From the NCBI GenBank assembly GCA_018333655.1, contig JAGXTJ010000010.1:39280-103279 (forward strand): a stretch of 64,000 nt of DNA, in the 5' to 3' direction. Each line of letters starts with the position of its first letter. The first letter of the stretch is position 1. Shown one piece after another: positions 11,814 to 31,685 of the stretch. The notes below the pieces were generated by a model. That model was not told where the DNA came from. It did not search any database and worked only from the letters and a program-made list of their open reading frames with translations. The stretch is from Bacillota bacterium (GTDB taxonomy: Bacteria > Bacillota > UBA994). Both the position numbers and the translations under genes were made by a program.

Positions 11814-12545
11814 GTGGCGAAGAAACGCATTAAACTGGAGAAACGCGATGACCGTCGCGAGTTCTCCATCATTTTTCATGAGCTATGGACAGAAAGCCTG
11901 GGGCACATTGGCGGCTCGGGGGCTTTGCTTTACTGCTTCCTCAAATACTTGGCGGATCACGAAGTGCCCGAGCCCTACTCCGCCGAGTGGGAACAGGCAG
12001 TTTGTTTGCCGCTCGGTATGTCTAGGGATGAGAGTCATGCCGCCTGGGCCAAGCTGCAAGAAAGTGGTCTCATACTCCTCGAGAAAAACAGCTATGTGTT
12101 GTGCGAGCCCCGCCCGAGTGTAGGTGCGTCGCCAACTAGTGAGAGCAAGATGCTGATGGTAGAAGTCGAAGCACGTTTCGGGCGCCCCCTGAGTATGACT
12201 GAAATTGAGCTCTTGGGCGATTTGTGCAGGGTCTACGACGAGACTTTGGTGCGCTTAGCTGCTGCTGTCGCCGTTGAGGCAGGGGCTTTGAGCCTGCCCT
12301 ACATCAGGCAGGTACTCCTCAACTGGAAGGCTAAGGGCATTACGTCTGCGGCCCAAGCCGAGGCTGACCGCCTTGGCTTCCAAGAAAAAAAGGCCAAGCG
12401 CAACGCCCGTACTGGCAGTAGGGGTAGCGACCCCGCTCCCACGCCCACTGCTCTGGCGCCAAGCAAATCTAAGTATGACGAAGCCGAGATCATTTTGCGC
12501 CGCATCAGAAAGTCGGCTGGTGACGAGGTAAGACATGGCAACTAA
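11814..12545 (+). CDS. DnaD-domain replication initiation / membrane attachment protein (DnaB/DnaD family)
   Basis: The C-terminal DDBH2-like region carries the conserved YIRQVLLNWKAKGITS motif (YxxxIxxxW). A DnaI-like helicase loader follows directly. GTG 11814 after GGAGGA. Confidence 0.7.
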   Translation: MAKKRIKLEKRDDRREFSIIFHELWTESLGHIGGSGALLYCFLKYLADHEVPEPYSAEWEQAVCLPLGMSRDESHAAWAKLQESGLILLEKNSYVLCEPRPSVGASPTSESKMLMVEVEARFGRPLSMTEIELLGDLCRVYDETLVRLAAAVAVEAGALSLPYIRQVLLNWKAKGITSAAQAEADRLGFQEKKAKRNARTGSRGSDPAPTPTALAPSKSKYDEAEIILRRIRKSAGDEVRHGN

Positions 12546-13467
12546 GGAGAGGGCCGCACTAACCAATCTTTGGGAAGCAGCAGAGCGCCGCACCAATGTT
12601 TTGCAGGCTCACCCTCATCTGGCCGCCCTCGAAGACGAGGTTTCCCTCGCTCTGCGCCTCTTTGCTGCGGGACAAGGCGATGATCAAGCAGTCGCCAGCG
12701 CCCGGGACAAGCGTTCTCAATACCTTAGGGAGCACGGCCTGCCACTCGATTATGCCGAACCCCGTTGGTCGTGCGCAGATTGTCAAGATGAAAGCTATGT
12801 GGGGGGCAAGCCCTGTCACTGCCGCCAGCAGGCCGAGCTCGCGCACCTACTCGGTAATTCAGGTTTGCCCCCTAAGCTACGCACACAGACTTTCGCGCGT
12901 TTTGACTTGAGTTGGTACTCTGGCAGCATGATGACCCCCCTTGGTATCTCCGAGAGGCATTGCGCCAGTTATGCCCTTAACACTTGCCAGAAGTTTGTGG
13001 CTTCGGTTATGGAGGGGCAGGAGCGCAGCGGCCTATTTATCTCGGGCGAACCTGGACTGGGTAAGACCTTCTTGCTCAGCTCTATCTGTAATAGTTTACT
13101 AGCGGCCCGAGTGCCGACCCTGTATGTTGTCTTTTGTGATCTCATTGCGGCCATCAAAGACACCTTTAATGCCGAAAGTAGCGGTACCACCGAGTCGCGT
13201 ATTATGACAGCGGCGCGTGAGGCCGACGTGCTGCTTCTCGATGACTTAGGAGCTGAACAAGTAACCGAGTTTGTCACCAACAGACTATTTGACATCGTCA
13301 ACTATCGCTGCAATCATCAAAAACCTTTGGTGGTGTCGTCAAATCTAAAGGTGTCGGAGATTGGGCGCCTATATGGGGAACGAATTGCCTCTCGTTTGTG
13401 GGAAATGTGTGAGGTCGTAGCGCTCTACGGTGAGGATATACGAATACAGAAGAAGCGGCAGGGATAA
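12535..13467 (+). CDS. dnaI: Primosomal helicase loader DnaI (DnaC/IstB-like AAA+ ATPase with N-terminal zinc-binding domain)
   Basis: N-terminal Cys cluster (CADCQDESYVGGKPCHCRQ), Walker A GEPGLGKTF, Walker B LLLDDLG. At 310 aa it matches DnaI size. Its start overlaps the upstream stop (ATGGCAACTAA). Confidence 0.8.
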   Translation: MATKERAALTNLWEAAERRTNVLQAHPHLAALEDEVSLALRLFAAGQGDDQAVASARDKRSQYLREHGLPLDYAEPRWSCADCQDESYVGGKPCHCRQQAELAHLLGNSGLPPKLRTQTFARFDLSWYSGSMMTPLGISERHCASYALNTCQKFVASVMEGQERSGLFISGEPGLGKTFLLSSICNSLLAARVPTLYVVFCDLIAAIKDTFNAESSGTTESRIMTAAREADVLLLDDLGAEQVTEFVTNRLFDIVNYRCNHQKPLVVSSNLKVSEIGRLYGERIASRLWEMCEVVALYGEDIRIQKKRQG

Positions 13468-27719: not shown

Positions 27720-29099
27720 ATGAAAAGACCATTACCCCAAGCCGAACCTTTTCGCATCAAAGTAGTAGAGCCAGTGAGCATGACCACCCGTGAGGAGAGA
27801 GCCGCAAAAATAGAGGCCTCTGGTTTTAACCTCTTTGGTCTCAAATCTACGGATGTCTATATCGATTTGCTCACCGACAGTGGCACCTCGGCCATGAGCG
27901 ACAACCAGTGGGCTGGCATGATGCTAGGCGACGAAGCCTATGCTGGCAGCAAGAATTACTACAATTTACTCGCAGCTGTAGACGATGTGATGGGCTTTCC
28001 GCATGTGGTGCCTACCCACCAGGGGCGCGCGGCCGAAAATTTGCTCCTCTATGTCATGTTGCGCGAAGGCAATTTTGTTCCGAACAATATGCATTTTGAC
28101 ACTACCAAGGCGCATGTACTACATAAGCGCGGGGTGCCAGTGGATCTAGTGCGGAGCGAGGCTTTTGACCCCACCTCGGAGTATCCTTTTAAGGGAGATA
28201 TGGACTTAGGCAAGCTAGAGGACTTTTTACTTGAGCACGGCGATCAAGTGCCCTTGGTGCTCCTCACCGTTACTTGTAACAGCGGTGGGGGACAGCCTGT
28301 CTCTATGGCCAATATTCGCGGGGTAAGTAGCATTGCCAAGAAGTATAACAAGCCCTTTTTTATCGATGCCTGTCGCTTCGCGGAAAATGCCTTCTTTATT
28401 AAACAGCGCGAGGCTGGGTTTGCCGAAAAAACAATCGCCGAAATCGTGCGCGAGATGTTCTCCTATGCCGATGGTTGTACCATGAGCGCCAAAAAGGACG
28501 CCTTGGTAAATATCGGAGGCTTCCTGGCCATGCGCGATCTCAAGCTGTACCAGGAAACGAGCGGCTTGGCGGTACTCTTTGAGGGCTTCCCCACCTATGG
28601 CGGCTTAGCGGGGCGCGACATGGAAGCCTTAGCGCGAGGGCTCCGCGAAGTTATTGACGGTGACTACCTGGCTTACCGAGTGGGGCAGGTCAAGTACCTC
28701 GGCGACTTGCTAGTCAACTATGGTGTACCCATCATCATGCCGGTCGGGGGGCATGCCGTCTATCTTGATGCCAAACGCTTCTTGCCGCATCTACCGCAAG
28801 GGCAGTTTCCCGCCCAAGCACTAGGCGTAGAGTTATATATTGAAGGCGGCGTGCGCGGGGTTGAAATAGGCACTTGTCTTTCAGGGCGTAACCCCAAGAC
28901 AGGAGATCATGACTACCCCAAGCTAGAGATGCTGCGCCTTACCATCCCGCGGCGAGTTTATACAGACCGACACATGGATGTTATTGCGGTAGCCTGCGCC
29001 AATGTGTGGGATCGCCGGGCTGAAATTACGGGGCTAGAGTTCACCTATGAAGCCCCCATCCTTCGTCACTTTACGGCCAGATTTAAGCGTCTTGGCTAA
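27720..29099 (+). CDS. tnaA: Tryptophanase (beta-eliminating lyase; Trp indole-lyase)
   Basis: EPFRIKVVEPVSMTTREER...DLLTDSGTSAMSDNQWAGMM...PTHQGRAAENLL...SAKKD (PLP lysine). The specificity positions read FDTT (Asp) and LRHFTARF (His), as in tryptophanase; tyrosine phenol-lyase has Thr and Phe there. RBS AAGGAGGA 9 nt before ATG 27720. Confidence 0.85.
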   Translation: MKRPLPQAEPFRIKVVEPVSMTTREERAAKIEASGFNLFGLKSTDVYIDLLTDSGTSAMSDNQWAGMMLGDEAYAGSKNYYNLLAAVDDVMGFPHVVPTHQGRAAENLLLYVMLREGNFVPNNMHFDTTKAHVLHKRGVPVDLVRSEAFDPTSEYPFKGDMDLGKLEDFLLEHGDQVPLVLLTVTCNSGGGQPVSMANIRGVSSIAKKYNKPFFIDACRFAENAFFIKQREAGFAEKTIAEIVREMFSYADGCTMSAKKDALVNIGGFLAMRDLKLYQETSGLAVLFEGFPTYGGLAGRDMEALARGLREVIDGDYLAYRVGQVKYLGDLLVNYGVPIIMPVGGHAVYLDAKRFLPHLPQGQFPAQALGVELYIEGGVRGVEIGTCLSGRNPKTGDHDYPKLEMLRLTIPRRVYTDRHMDVIAVACANVWDRRAEITGLEFTYEAPILRHFTARFKRLG

Positions 29100-29126
29100 G
29101 AGCCGAGAAGAGAAAGAGGTGTGCCT

Positions 29127-29810
29127 GTGACTACTGCCATTGTGTGCGCCATGCATTCCGAGTTAGAGGTGCTGCGTTCCTCCTTAGACCTTGTGCCCTA
29201 TGAAAGCAGCAGCCCTTTCACCCTCTACCAAACACGCGAGCAGGACATTGTAGCCATGGTCAGCGGCGTCGGCAAAGTTAATGCCGCCGCTGCTCTGGCT
29301 TGGCTATTGTCTCGCTTTGCTATAAAGCAGGTGCTAGCCGTCGGGGTGGCAGGTGGCATTGCCGCAGATCTTAGGCTAGGCGATGTGGTCGTTTGTAGCG
29401 GGGCCATTCAGCATGATATGGATGCCACGGCCTTCGGTTACGAAGTTGGCATGGTGCCTGTCCTGCGCAAGAAACTATTTGCGGCCAGCAAGGACCTAGT
29501 GCGCGAAGCACTAGAGGCGGGTGAAAAGGCGGATTTAGGCGTCGCCGTACGTGCGGGCCTCGTACTAACAGGGGACAAGTTTGTGGCCGGCAGAGAAGGG
29601 GCTAGCCTGAGGGAACTTTTTAGCGGCGACTGCGTCGACATGGAGACCGCCGCGTGGGCACAAGTTGCCGAGCTCTTCCAGGTGCCCTGGGTGGCACTGC
29701 GCAGCATCTCTGACCAAGCCGATGGCCACGCCCCCGCCGCCTTTAACGAATTCCTACCCCTAGCCGTCGCCAACATGAGCGCCGTAATCCTCGCCATGCG
29801 AGCGAAGTGA
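29127..29810 (+). CDS. mtnN: 5'-methylthioadenosine/S-adenosylhomocysteine nucleosidase
   Basis: AIVCAMHSELEVL...GVGKVNAAAA...VGVAGG and a C-terminal DMETAA...ISDQAD are the PNP/UDP family MtnN motifs. GTG 29127 after AAAGAGG. Confidence 0.8.
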   Translation: MTTAIVCAMHSELEVLRSSLDLVPYESSSPFTLYQTREQDIVAMVSGVGKVNAAAALAWLLSRFAIKQVLAVGVAGGIAADLRLGDVVVCSGAIQHDMDATAFGYEVGMVPVLRKKLFAASKDLVREALEAGEKADLGVAVRAGLVLTGDKFVAGREGASLRELFSGDCVDMETAAWAQVAELFQVPWVALRSISDQADGHAPAAFNEFLPLAVANMSAVILAMRAK

Positions 29811-29850
29811 AGCGCGAAGCGCTAGGGACGGTTCTTCTTGCTTCACAGCG
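29806..29850. repeat. Left imperfect inverted repeat / hairpin flanking the IS200-like gene (GTGAAGC...AGGGACGGTTCT...GCTTCAC)
   Basis: Read directly. It matches the reverse complement of 30703-30745 over GAAGTGA, AGGGACGGTTCT (12 of 12) and GCTTCAC. It also carries a tandem GAAGCGC GAAGCGC. Confidence 0.55.
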
Positions 29851-29886
29851 CCCATGATGCTATGCTTGCCTTGGAGGTGGGTAGAT

Positions 29887-30669
29887 ATGCCAAGACAGGC
29901 GAGAAGGGTTAATCCACAGGGATACTATCACGTGATGATGCGGGGCAATAATCGGCACCCCATTTTCGGTAGGCCCGATGATAAGGCGTATTATCTCAAG
30001 GTTTTGCAGGAGCATTGTTGCGAAGACACCTTAGCCATTGTGGCTTACTGCCTTATGGACAATCACGTGCACCTAGTTTTGCATGCCGCAAGTGATGCTT
30101 TTAGCAGAGCGTTGAGCCGCACCAATCTTAAATTCGCTCTGCGTTACAACACACGACAGAAGCATTGTGGGCATGTGTTCCAAGACAGATTTAGGAGCGA
30201 GATCATCGATGAGCCTCGCTACTTGCTGGCGGCCATCAGGTATGTGCACAATAATCCCGTCAAGGCAAAGCTCGTCAATGCCCCTAGGGACTACAGGTGG
30301 AGCAGCTATCAAGAGTACGTGAGCGAAAGCACAATCATAGATAAAGAGTTAATGGTAAGCGTGCTGGCAGAATATTTTAATGGGGATGTCAGCAAGTTCA
30401 TCGCTTTTCATCGGCAACATGACGAGCATGAGTTTTTGGAGGACAGAGTCGACTTAGAGTTGCAGCGCCTAGAGCGTGGTCAGCGTGTTCTTTTAGCGTT
30501 TTGTGAGTCATATGGTATCGAGAATCCTAAGGAGGCCTATCGCAATCCCGAATTGTTGGCGACTTTGACGCATTATCTGATTGAGAACAGCCGATTAAGT
30601 CATAGACAGGTAGCGGAGTTGCTAGGCGTTAGCAGTAGCCGAATACACAGAGTAGCTTCGCGACAATGA
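29887..30669 (+). CDS. IS200/IS605-like Y1 (HUH) transposase domain fused to a C-terminal DnaA domain-IV-like HTH
   Basis: N-terminal GYYHVMMRGNNRHPIF, the HUH motif DNHVHLVL, and the catalytic Tyr region RYVHNNPVKAKLV (PF01797-like). C-terminal ...LIENSRLSHRQVAELLGVSSSRIHRVASR resembles DnaA C-terminal DNA-binding helices. RBS GGAGGTGG. Confidence 0.75.
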   Translation: MPRQARRVNPQGYYHVMMRGNNRHPIFGRPDDKAYYLKVLQEHCCEDTLAIVAYCLMDNHVHLVLHAASDAFSRALSRTNLKFALRYNTRQKHCGHVFQDRFRSEIIDEPRYLLAAIRYVHNNPVKAKLVNAPRDYRWSSYQEYVSESTIIDKELMVSVLAEYFNGDVSKFIAFHRQHDEHEFLEDRVDLELQRLERGQRVLLAFCESYGIENPKEAYRNPELLATLTHYLIENSRLSHRQVAELLGVSSSRIHRVASRQ

Positions 30670-30702
30670 GGGTTTTGGCGGTAGAGGGGGCAGAGTGAAG
30701 CG

Positions 30703-30745
30703 CCGAGAACCGTCCCTGGTGCGTCACTTCGGGAACAAATAGACT
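30703..30745. repeat. Right imperfect inverted repeat flanking the IS200-like gene (AGTGAAGCGCCGAGAACCGTCCCTGGTGCGTCACTTCG)
   Basis: Reverse complement of the left repeat, read directly. Confidence 0.55.
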
Positions 30746-30788
30746 CGGTGTGGCGTCAATAAGGCAAAAGATATGCGGAGGTAGTGTT

Positions 30789-31685
30789 ATGAGACGCAAA
30801 TTTATTTTACCCGTTGCTCTTTTTGTCGTATTGGCCCTCGCAGCTGGGGTCCTAGTCAGTTTGCGCAACCCTGCCCTGCCAGAGATGTCTATGGGCAGAG
30901 GGAGCGAAGAGGCGTCACCGCCAGGCGTAGCCGGTAAGCAATCGGTGTCCTCTGATTTTGCCTTAACCGGGCGCAGTGCCGAGATTGTGGACCGCAAAGT
31001 AGTCACTCATGCCTCTTTGGCAGTGACAGTGCCCAAACTCGATGCTGCGCAAGCCGAAGTTTTAAGCCTCACCACGGAACTAGGTGGCTATGTGCAGAGC
31101 TCAAACTTTAATAATCATACAGAGAACCAAGCCTGGAATTTTACACTACGCATTCCAAGTGACAAGTCGAATGAGGCGGTGAGGCTTATTTCGGCACTCG
31201 GCACCGTACAAAGCAGTGGCTCTAATCGTCAGGATGTCACTGAAGAGTACATGGACCTAGAGGCTCGCTTAACCGTCATGCGACTCGAAGAAACTCGACT
31301 GCTAGAGCTTCTCCGCCGCGCCAACACCATTGATGACTACCTCAAGGTCGAGAGCCACCTTACGCGCGTGCGCATCGAGATAGAGCAGGCTACGGGTCGT
31401 CTTAAGTTCTTAACACATAGCGTCGATATGGCGACCATTGGCTTAACCCTTACTCCCGAGAGAGGCACAATTCTACCTAAGCCCGTCGGGTTTGCCGGTC
31501 TAGGACAACGCCTTAGTGCGGCTTTTAGGCAAGGGCTAAACGTGGTGGTAGAAATTGTAACGGGTGCCCTTGTCTTCGTGGTCGCCGCGCTTCCATTGTT
31601 CATCATCATCGTGCCCTTGCTCCTCATCGGCCTTGTTTTTTACCGCCGCATGAGCCCCACGAAGAAGCCTCCGGCAGCTTCATAG
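30789..31685 (+). CDS. DUF4349-domain protein (signal anchor, coiled coil, C-terminal TM)
   Basis: N-terminal MRRKFILPVALFVVLALAAG, a central coiled coil (EEYMDLEARLTVMRLEETRLLELL...RVRIEIEQATGRLKFL), and a C-terminal TM segment (VFVVAALPLFIIIVPLLLIGLVFY). Confidence 0.7.
   Translation: MRRKFILPVALFVVLALAAGVLVSLRNPALPEMSMGRGSEEASPPGVAGKQSVSSDFALTGRSAEIVDRKVVTHASLAVTVPKLDAAQAEVLSLTTELGGYVQSSNFNNHTENQAWNFTLRIPSDKSNEAVRLISALGTVQSSGSNRQDVTEEYMDLEARLTVMRLEETRLLELLRRANTIDDYLKVESHLTRVRIEIEQATGRLKFLTHSVDMATIGLTLTPERGTILPKPVGFAGLGQRLSAAFRQGLNVVVEIVTGALVFVVAALPLFIIIVPLLLIGLVFYRRMSPTKKPPAAS

Follow-up and report, generated by a model that had tools for sequence, protein, structure and literature searches.

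A probable TIRtron at the 3' end of mtnN in a Dethiobacter-like bacterium: a TIRYT transposase gene between inverted hairpin repeats

Described relatives and the transposase

TIRYT transposases and TIRtrons were described by Di Nocera, De Gregorio & Rocco 2013 (PMC3733652). Quentin, Siguier, Chandler & Fichant 2018 (PMC6006769) equated TIRYT with subclass 2.1 of TnpA-Y1 class 2, which carries a Bac_DnaA_C-like tail, and group 1 of the RAYTs of Bertels et al. 2017 (PMC5581495) maps onto the same subclass. TIRYT/subclass 2.1 is reported to be the second largest HUH-Y1 group and to be found in about 15% of sampled strains (PMC6006769); Quentin et al. reported its genes as low in copy number, without adjacent REP-like secondary structures and without evidence of mobility (PMC6006769). 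The cassette that we investigated is 0.9 kb long and comes from a Dethiobacter-like bacterium, where we analysed it within a 64-kb stretch of DNA (the window). It is probably a TIRtron, that is, a unit in which inverted copies of a cognate hairpin enclose the gene for a RAYT-related TIRYT transposase of class 2 of the HUH/Y1 proteins; it would be an insertion in the 3' end of mtnN, mobile by a mechanism that we infer below.

The assignment to TIRYT/subclass 2.1 was made from the described features of the group. The shared features are a RAYT-like HUH/Y1 protein with a Y-x3-NP motif, among the longest of the superfamily through its C-terminal helix-turn-helix (HTH; Bac_DnaA_C, HTH_23 or HTH_28), a gene placed between terminal inverted repeats (TIRs) at a roughly constant distance, repeats that form moderately abundant families of solo copies, dimers and clusters in some genomes, and a patchy distribution that includes Clostridia. 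The kind of system is already published and is itself not new; the cassette represents a well-documented member of it, and the novelty is modest.

The transposase ORF (29887-30669, plus strand) encodes 260 aa, with the HUH-Y1 nuclease domain at about aa 1-140. An earlier sequence-only reading had recognized the HUH and catalytic Tyr blocks of a Y1 transposase, and both are there. The HUH motif is encoded by CAC GTG CAC at 30064-30072, within DNHVHLV (H60, H62), and the catalytic Tyr119 by TAT at 30241-30243, within RYVHNNP, where Y119, N123 and P124 make up the Y-x3-NP motif. HUH together with Y-x3-NP is the class-2 signature, and the residues of both blocks are invariant in an alignment of 40 homologues, all of which also keep the 260-aa length and the HTH. 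The ORF starts at the ATG at 29887. This codon is preceded by the ribosome binding site GGAGG (29873-29877), corresponds to the N-terminus of the homologues, all of which begin with MPRQAR, and was picked by gene callers on 10 contigs; the ATG at 29854 is not the start.

Pfam Y1_Tnp matches the ORF with E = 9e-13, and NCBIfam REP_Tyr_transpos gives a near miss of 77.7 bits, just below the cut-off of 80. Compared with solved structures, the family profile matches TnpAREP (4er8) with E = 1.6e-6, and the top Foldseek match of the full-length structure model (pLDDT 90) is likewise 4er8_A, from E. coli TnpAREP. By these comparisons the class-2 protein is closest to E. coli TnpAREP both in sequence and in predicted fold.

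The remainder of the protein is a C-terminal domain of about 110 aa with predicted helices (aa 149-260; 30331-30666, plus strand), which ends in an HTH (aa ~229-259; 30571-30663, plus strand) with the family consensus LSHRQIAxLLGVSxSxVH. When this domain was folded alone and without an alignment (pLDDT 77), the same helices were obtained as in the full-length model. The sequence-only reading had likened the extension to DnaA domain IV. The structure model agrees, in that the best fold matches of the HTH are to DnaA domain IV; however, Pfam Bac_DnaA_C does not match the protein at E <= 1. A phmmer search with aa 140-260 against 1.84 billion representatives retrieved only C-termini or fragments of the same ~260-aa family. 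The union of an HUH domain with a DnaA-C-like HTH had also been called functionally unexplored; this architecture, inverted-repeat flanks included, has already been published (PMC6006769, PMC3733652), whereas we found no experimental study of TIRYT/subclass 2.1 proteins in the searchable literature.

A cassette between inverted hairpins in the 3' end of mtnN

A 37-nt hairpin motif with the conserved loop GGGACGGTTC occurs on both sides of the transposase gene, in opposite orientations. The left TIR (29812-29848, plus strand; 46.9 bits) reads GAAGCGCTA-GGGACGGTTCT-TCTTGCTTCAC, with the loop motif at 29825-29834. The right TIR (30693-30729; 40 bits) is inverted relative to the left one and reads GTGACGCACCA-GGGACGGTTCT-CGGCGCTTCAC on the minus strand, with the loop motif at 30707-30716. 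The inverted flanking repeats noticed in the sequence-only reading are present in every named feature, including the block that agrees at 12 of 12 positions: AGGGACGGTTCT is found at 29824-29835 on the plus strand and its exact reverse complement at 30706-30717, the only two matches in 64 kb at one mismatch or fewer (0.27 expected), while GAAGTGA (29804-29810) pairs with TCACTTC (30724-30730) and GCTTCAC (29840-29846) with GTGAAGC (30695-30701). The right repeat begins at about 30693 and not at 30703, the start of the interval 30703-30745 first given for it, which is why the GTGAAGC arm fell outside the earlier right-hand coordinates.

A weight matrix built from 106 copies in other organisms, with the window copies excluded, scores the left flank at 44.7 bits and the right flank at 31.0 bits. 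The next-best site in the 64-kb window scores -11.4 bits, and the maximum over 100 shuffled windows is 8.6 bits. Neither a further hairpin copy nor a second gene of the family was found within the 64-kb window. Both window hairpins are degenerate, with 8 of 11 stem pairs each, and their folding energies are no more favorable than those of shuffled sequence (z = -0.9 and -0.2). The proposal that the left copy folds as a hairpin thus gains nothing from its energy, but pairing across the family does support the stem, with 82.5% of cells paired versus 40-58% when the partner is slid.

The gene mtnN (29121-29810, plus strand) encodes an MTA/SAH nucleosidase (PNP_UDP_1) of 229 aa and ends with the stop codon TGA at 29808-29810. 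We followed up the suggestion to look for an empty site in relatives, and found that the two closest ones (L123 and L124, whose DUF4349 proteins are 84% and 80% identical) have the identical gene order, an empty junction between mtnN and DUF4349, and an intact mtnN that is 10 codons longer than in the window. Together, these observations point to a discrete insertion of 906 nt in the window. The segment 29829-30734 (plus strand) is absent from both empty sites, and when it is removed the window is colinear with both relatives. The same GGGA stands before both junctions (29825-29828 and 30731-30734), which leaves an ambiguity of 4 nt in where the segment begins and ends. Boundaries at the outer feet of the hairpins (~29802-30728) had been considered as well and were replaced, as they left 4 nt over. 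The ends of the unit differ with the comparison made: paralogues place them at the outer hairpin feet, whereas the empty sites place the left end inside the loop.

The left 5' arm with GGGA (29816-29828) is present in the relatives' empty sites too. Adjoining the element are about 16 extra nt that the empty sites lack (29799-29815, plus strand, placement +/-2 nt; GCGAGCGAAGTGAAGC). They hold a partial copy of the 5' arm, GTGAAGC, inside which the mtnN stop codon sits, and CGAAGTGAAGC (29803-29813) is the inverted partner of 30721-30731. The sequence-only reading had placed the insertion exactly at the stop codon of mtnN. The insertion does lie in the 3' end of this gene; however, mtnN was cut short by 10 codons, and the displaced remnant of its original 3' end is found downstream (30735-30762, plus strand; ACAAATAGACTCGGTGTGGCGTCAATAA), colinear with the last codons and the stop of the relatives' longer mtnN. 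The remnant is followed by the ribosome binding site and the start codon (30789) of the DUF4349 gene. The 906-nt difference can be read as an insertion here or as an excision in the relatives; in the more distant relative L120 the site is filled too, with the right junction in the same place.

All 23 contigs that we read, which come from several studies, carry the protein at one and the same site and with 100% identity. This includes all strains with variants at the foot of a hairpin: the outer foot of the right hairpin (30725-30726) is a hot spot of variation, where we saw a 1-nt deletion, an A>G change and a 12-nt duplication, and where a 48-nt duplication ends. The constancy of the protein would be expected of a domesticated, immobile RAYT-type gene that is inherited vertically beside DUF4349 and has a host function, its repeats being relics or regulatory and the gene having been deleted from the relatives. 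Such a gene would also fit the context of the closest homologue for which a context can be read (P0003, 58% identity), which likewise lies directly upstream of an orthologous DUF4349 gene (72% identity) with the same right junction; a closer homologue (P0002, 69% identity) is on a 920-nt contig without context. The single copy and the lack of solo hairpins in 64 kb are compatible with domestication, as is the published view of class-2 genes as low-copy and housekeeping-like (PMC5581495, PMC6006769). Nevertheless, we consider this explanation unlikely. In the two closest relatives the empty sites are clean and mtnN is longer and intact, change in the flanks continues among strains at positions anchored to the hairpins, and the catalytic residues are intact. 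Moreover, whole units occur as copies with 95-97.5% identity within one other genome (the units L122a and L122b are 97.5% identical over 910 nt, and this identity stops at the outer hairpin feet).

The hairpin family in other genomes

A plus/minus bracket of hairpins surrounds the gene in all eight full-length homologues with both flanks readable, which are 34-58% identical to the window protein, and in five of the eight the distance from the upstream loop to the ATG is 60-62 nt, the same as in the window. This symmetry is difficult to reconcile with an ordinary autonomous IS200/IS605 insertion sequence, with a class-1 TnpA and flanks that are symmetrical by coincidence. The cassette does resemble IS608 and ISDra2 in its HUH-Y1 fold and, as we infer here, in hairpin recognition. 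It is multi-copy in one genome, its junctions carry no target duplication longer than the 4-nt GGGA, it is inserted beside a short specific sequence, here GGGA itself, and the pairing of GAAGC in the flank with GCTTC in the element is reminiscent of the pairing between guide and cleavage site. However, the ends of IS200/IS605 elements are different hairpins on the same strand, whereas those of the cassette are inverted copies of one hairpin. Y-x3-NP is the class-2 signature (PMC6006769), NCBIfam transpos_IS200 scores 18.3 bits, far below its cut-off of 55, IS200-type TnpA structures are matched only at E ~0.7, the 260-aa protein with its HTH tail is nearly twice as long as TnpA, and the cassette contains no TnpB partner. 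An ordinary IS200/IS605 element is therefore very improbable. The sequence-only reading had already favored a RAYT-like element with REP- or REPIN-like flanks over a canonical IS200, and the class-2 protein nearest to TnpAREP, the dispersed hairpin family and the empty sites in relatives agree with it.

Among solved structures, the classical RAYTs (TnpAREP, E. coli YafM, 4ER8) give the best match in sequence and structure, and their genes are also bracketed by inverted short palindromic repeats that are found dispersed between genes. The repeats themselves differ. Neither window hairpin has GTAG at its foot, nor does the consensus of 108 hairpin sequences, nnnnGAAGCAAnAGGGACGGTTCTTTTTGCTTCACnn; the conserved element is an 11-nt loop here but the stem and tag in REPs; and whereas each classical RAYT has its own REP family, one loop is common to proteins that are 34-58% identical to the window protein. 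The window protein further differs by its additional 110-aa HTH domain. In contrast to a REPIN, a short-spaced non-coding doublet, the two window copies are ~870 nt apart with a gene between them. A CGTC-tagged REP, suggested by the CGTC in the complement of the motif, was rejected; in CGTC-tagged REPs the loop measures 4-5 nt, the tag is terminal and no transposase is associated. The TIRs of TIRYTs have the common G-rich motif GGGGWSAS, and some are self-complementary. The window sequence AGGGACGG matches this motif at 6 of 8 positions and the family consensus GGGGACGG at 7 of 8; the difference is that the window motif, (G)GGGACGGTTC, is placed in the loop of a hairpin. An invariant loop on a covarying or variable stem is also seen at rolling-circle Rep origins, where an HUH protein nicks it, but this is an analogy only, as the protein belongs to the Y1 transposases rather than to the Reps and the context of the locus is not that of a replicon.

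Scans with the exact pattern gave 59 metagenome and 63 genome matches, of which about 90% are true copies; the genome scan gave no match in the host of the window. The search for additional palindromes and genes that had been proposed was successful in other Bacillota genomes, several of which contain dispersed, mostly extragenic solo hairpins, but not in the 64-kb window. In the loci sampled from the MAG CAYSKJ01 the model hits number at least 26, and L059 contains the cognate gene. Only 13% of 127 unique copies lie inside ORFs, compared with an ORF coverage of 85.5% of bases. A partial 5' copy abuts 20 of 118 hairpins, many of the partial copies stop inside the loop, after GGGA(C), and true hairpin doublets are found in L094, L083 and L062. 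A literature search for the motif string returned unrelated primer sequences only. In contrast to what was reported for subclass 2.1, the Bacillota family studied here has hairpin ends, dispersed copies in one MAG, near-identical whole units, an empty site and rearrangements at the strain level.

It is hardly tenable that the hairpins act in transcription or as RNA elements, either as a terminator pair or as mRNA-stabilising stem-loops, and have no connection with DNA mobility. Solo copies are, it is true, mainly intergenic, with a preference for convergent gene pairs (30) over divergent ones (15), and the right hairpin would fall in the 3' UTR of the gene. However, no terminator-like site was found in 29600-30950 and no Rfam match in 29000-31500 (E <= 1), and no T tract follows the stem. 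Where the neighboring genes point the same way, 19 solo copies are in sense and 18 in antisense orientation, so that there is no strand bias relative to transcription. Conservation is in the loop, which always occurs in inverted pairs around one protein family, and the empty sites have no hairpins at all. The sequence-only reading had named a unique terminator pair beside a universally conserved gene as the finding that would speak against it; instead, terminator-like sites are missing, the motif has other copies, and the closest relatives lack the gene.

Proposed mechanism and significance

In the mechanism that we propose for the TIRtron, the HUH domain would bind the single-stranded form of the hairpin, in the manner of E. 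coli TnpAREP, and the enzyme would cut and rejoin within or beside the conserved loop. GGGA comes before each junction on the top strand, and the repeat at the junctions is at most these 4 nt. Joining of the excised ends would recreate GGGA/CGGTTC (the slash marks the joint), with the circle junction ...CTTCGGGA/CGGTTC..., and joining of the donor flanks would recreate the half-site GAAGC-N4-GGGA of the empty sites, the excised donor reading CATGC-GAAGCGCTAGGGA/ACAAATAG. The GGGA-flanked junctions and the recreated half-site suggest a movement of the "peel and paste" type, similar to that of IS200/IS605. The same enzyme would seed and rearrange the solo hairpins, and these would be REP-like in behavior. 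The DnaA-IV-like HTH tail would read the invariant loop sequence or the duplex form of it; this role in loop recognition is our conjecture.

A putative promoter lies at 29838-29866 (plus strand), with a -35 box TTGCTT (29838-29843), a 17-nt spacer, TG at 29858-29859 and a -10 box TATGCT (29861-29866). Its geometry recurs in homologues, there with a perfect TATAAT; a simple consensus promoter scan did not call the window promoter, which agrees with the consensus at 8 of 12 positions. The -35 box is inside the 3' arm of the left hairpin, so that binding to the hairpin would also repress the gene's own transcription.

A bolder version of this proposal, which we put forward tentatively as a possibility, is that the Bacillota branch represents an active self-mobilising element in which the loop itself is the cut site, nicked after GGGA, similar to what happens at rolling-circle Rep origins. 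The target half-site GAAGC-N4-GGGA would pair with the GCTTC arm of the element in a guide-like fashion and might in principle be reprogrammable, as in IS608; the solo hairpins and abutting partial copies would be shed in the same reaction, and the HTH would read the loop, which would account for the conservation of a single 10-nt motif among proteins with only 34-58% identity to the window protein.

For the annotation of the genome that contains the window, the consequence is that mtnN is C-terminally truncated by a mobile cassette. The locus and its relatives provide a natural-history data set for a TIRYT: a filled site, two empty sites, rearrangements at the hairpin feet, near-identical units and a population of solo hairpins. 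From these data, testable predictions can be made on the substrate of the enzyme, on its cut positions and on the role of the HTH tail. They also give a hint at how REP-like repeat families may have originated outside the Proteobacteria.

The transposase gene and its bracket

The gene between inverted flanks that the sequence-only reading had noticed is confirmed. The element contains a single ORF on the + strand with a mechanical start at 29854; a GGAGG at 29873-29877, an MPRQAR N-terminus in every homologue and ten independent gene calls show that the true start is the ATG at 29887. The stop ends at 30669, and the product has 260 aa. Pfam identifies a Y1_Tnp domain (E = 9e-13, aa 12-123), and all 40 aligned homologues conserve H60 and H62 of the HUH motif and the tyrosine of RYVHNNP (Y119-x3-N123-P124). 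The 40 proteins have about 260 aa each and share a C-terminal helix-turn-helix (HTH), LSHRQIAxLLGVSxSxVH. In Pfam, aa 229-259 match only weak, sub-threshold HTH models, with no Bac_DnaA_C match at E <= 1.

The protein scores 77.7 with the NCBIfam model for REP-associated tyrosine transposases (RAYTs), just below the cut-off of 80, but only 18.3 with the IS200 transposase model, far below the cut-off of 55. The full-length structure model is confident (pLDDT 90, pTM 0.84), and its top PDB match in Foldseek is 4er8_A, the E. coli TnpAREP with bound REP hairpin, with the ISDra2 and IS608 transposases ranking lower. Compared with PDB sequences, the family profile finds 4er8 at E = 1.6e-6 and IS200-type chains only at E ~0.7. 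Together with the dispersal of the hairpins, these results support the earlier view of a RAYT-like gene with REP-like flanks over a canonical IS200. No second gene of the family was found in the 64-kb window by tblastn.

The motif AGGGACGGTTCT occurs exactly twice in the window, at 29824-29835 (+) and 30706-30717 (-), and a 38-nt imperfect inverted repeat surrounds both matches. A family weight matrix from which the window's own copies were left out gives 44.7 bits for the left flank and 31.0 for the right, whereas the next best site in the window scores -11.4 and the maximum over 100 shuffled windows is 8.6.

This bracket, with the motif upstream on the coding strand and again on the opposite strand shortly after the stop, is present in all eight full-length homologue genes whose flanks are both readable, and in five of them the upstream motif keeps the window's distance of 60-62 nt from the ATG. 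The eight are found in L120 (58% identical to the window protein), twice each in L121 and L122, two loci of one 3.7-Mb genome (43-44%), in L065 (43%), in L059 (35%), and in L062 from Neobacillus niacini (34%), where inverted doublets with a CCWGG stem form the bracket and the upstream doublet is >500 nt from the start. The homologue in L093 (46%) has the expected downstream motif before the locus ends. A paralogue in Dethiobacter sp. (P0099, 45%; 900-1790 of L119, a 1.9-kb contig too short to interpret) has flanks that are not in the inverted pattern: its upstream motif is degenerate (AGGACGGAGC), and a good downstream copy at 1739-1775 shares the gene's strand. The 20-kb stretch of L121 also contains a third, divergent Y1 gene (12080-12916; 278 aa, 34-43% identical) with a different C-terminal region and no GGGACGGTTC flanks, which probably belongs to another subfamily.

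The hairpin arm TGAAGC provides the transposase's own stop codon in L065 (~5233) and L059 (~193), and in the window the stop of the truncated mtnN (29808-29810).

Filled and empty sites

An identical transposase protein is found at the same site in 23 of 23 contigs read, from several studies. A search with the neighbouring DUF4349 protein recovered two close relatives (DUF4349 84% and 80% identical) with the gene order of the window (PHP, RapZ, CofD, beta-eliminating lyase, mtnN, DUF4349, TldD, PmbA) but with no Y1 gene and a gap of just 8-26 nt from mtnN to DUF4349. Their mtnN is 10 codons longer, and the former mtnN 3' codons and stop are still present 3' of the element, at 30735-30762. When the 906 nt of 29829-30734 are removed, the window aligns colinearly with the two empty sites, apart from some 16 additional nt at 29799-29815. 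Because each junction follows a GGGA, the element's ends can be placed only to within 4 nt; no target duplication longer than this GGGA was found there. By this alignment the element is an insertion at the end of mtnN, as the sequence-only reading had held.

Both empty sites contain the 5' hairpin half in the form GAAGC-N4-GGGA. The pattern has no other match in either 10-kb locus (0.10 and 0.17 matches would be expected over the whole locus), and neither locus has the hairpin elsewhere. In the more distant relative L120 (DUF4349 identity 72%) the site is occupied; its right junction, CTTCGGGA|ACAAAG, equals that of the window, but the left neighbour differs. Parsimony does not separate one ancient gain and a later clean loss from two gains at the same target.

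The hairpin family in other genomes

The decisive evidence on the flanks comes from comparison with copies outside the window. An exact GGGACGGTTCTNNNNGCTTCAC scan found the pattern 59 times among metagenome contigs and 63 times among species-representative genomes, and about 90% of these are copies of one hairpin, (GT)GAAGC-N4-GGGACGGTTCT-N4-GCTTCAC, whose likeness reaches well past the pattern. The loop shows little or no variation among 108 distinct aligned copies, 82.5% of stem cells are paired versus 40-58% with a slid partner, and some inner stem pairs show two-sided change. The suggested hairpins therefore hold for the family through its stem pairing, whereas neither window flank folds better than shuffled sequence. 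Further copies are dispersed in other genomes, but a covariance model finds no third one in the 64-kb window.

Copies are mostly solo; only 13% of 127 unique copies lie inside ORFs >=100 aa, although such ORFs make up 85.5% of bases. Between same-direction genes, 19 are sense and 18 antisense, and convergent spacers contain more (30) than divergent ones (15). This distribution argues for a DNA-level, REP-like repeat and not an RNA element. The alternative of a unique terminator pair beside a universally conserved gene fails: neither a terminator-like site nor an Rfam family was found at the element, other copies of the motif exist, and the gene is absent from the two closest relatives.

In the sampled loci of the metagenome-assembled genome (MAG) CAYSKJ01 the model has at least 26 matches, and this MAG also encodes a cognate gene between hairpins of the same kind. 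Several copies occur in each of some other MAGs (Eubacteriaceae, Fermentithermobacillaceae, Alkaliphilus, Clostridiaceae). In CAYSKJ01, six tandem 51-nt units with the hairpin arms and a different, longer loop, GGATGAAGCAGGAAGTGCGGGGG, begin right after two normal hairpins (L040 5224-5529, L101 26-127). Direct dimers 66 nt apart are common in Ga0334892 / CAYSKJ01 (L017, L021, L026, L029, L049, L067, L068, L074, L079, L091, L100); with their conserved spacer, AGCYGG..CCCGAATAAATGCGCATTTTC, which includes the palindrome AAATGCGCATTT, they form a composite unit resembling a bacterial interspersed mosaic element (BIME). A variant with a CCWGG stem and the loop GGGACGGTTC unchanged (L062 1325-6310, L070, L088) is laid out in REPIN-like inverted doublets 23-52 nt apart, with nine copies in 7.3 kb of L062 adjoining its homologue. 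GC-rich-stem hairpins like those of the window (GAAGCGCTA...), solo or half-plus-full, occur in metagenome contigs of host-like composition (L011/L039, L056, L015, L027; tetranucleotide r 0.80-0.93 versus the window) and might represent additional copies within the lineage of the host.

Signs of activity, proposed mechanism and kinship

Strains with identical transposase protein differ in their flanks in four ways: one strain (L001/L002) has tandem duplications of 38 nt on the left and 48 nt on the right, L007 has a 12-nt duplication, L004/L006 a 1-nt deletion and L005 a substitution. All right-hand changes fall at 30725-30726, where the right hairpin has its outer foot, and each duplication begins at the 5' foot, read in the hairpin sense. 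In other genomes, 20 of 118 unique hairpins have an abutting partial 5' copy upstream, versus 4 downstream. Two contigs (L009, L010) end inside the right hairpin, at about window 30707, which fits either heterogeneity among strains or copies of the repeat at other places in the genome. The 3.7-Mb genome contains duplicated complete units of hairpin, gene and hairpin: identity is 97.5% for L122a/b (910 nt) and 95% for L121a/b, and it ends at the outer hairpin feet. A 371-nt partial copy (L122 10833-11203), 98% identical to the gene's 3' portion together with the right hairpin, directly adjoins the right hairpin of a full copy.

As to mechanism, we infer the cut positions and suggest that the element would move as a single strand by peel-and-paste, that target half-site pairing would contribute to its target choice, and that the HTH tail would read the hairpin loop. 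The transposase may also repress itself. Homologues have TTGCTT within the 3' arm of their upstream hairpin, then a 17-nt spacer and TG-n-TATAAT; the putative window promoter (TTGCTT 29838-29843, TG 29858-29859, TATGCT 29861-29866) is our reading, as a simple consensus scan does not call it. Protein bound at the repeat would then act on the overlapping promoter, as in many insertion sequences.

RAYT-like genes with terminal inverted repeats (TIRs) instead of GTAG REPs have been described as TIRtrons/TIRYTs; GGGGWSAS is common to many of these TIRs and stands at much the same distance from the gene, while some TIRs are self-complementary and some make up moderately abundant repeat families (Di Nocera et al., PMC3733652). 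Of 26 TIRYTs, 20 were assigned to subclass 2.1, which has the class-2 Y-x3-NP motif, the longest proteins of the superfamily and a C-terminal HTH resembling Bac_DnaA_C, HTH_23 or HTH_28, and which includes 291 of 292 Bertels RAYT group 1 sequences (Quentin et al., PMC6006769). Its repeat motif is unlike the DnaA box, no REP-like structures were found adjoining its genes, and its authors report no formal evidence of mobility (PMC6006769). Group 1 also occurs in Clostridia (Bertels et al., PMC5581495); in the searchable literature only these three papers name TIRYTs. The window element shares the testable defining features, namely the catalytic signature, the long HTH tail and TIRs at a fixed distance, and its motif nearly matches GGGGWSAS (6-7 of 8). 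Unlike classical RAYT/REP systems it has no GTAG tag and falls below the NCBIfam cut-off, and it fails the defining features of IS200. The element is thus a new and well-documented example of a class already described, and not a kind of its own. This analysis adds that the Bacillota repeats are hairpins with an invariant loop and are dispersed as solo copies; it also adds a filled and empty site pair, and rearrangements at the population level.
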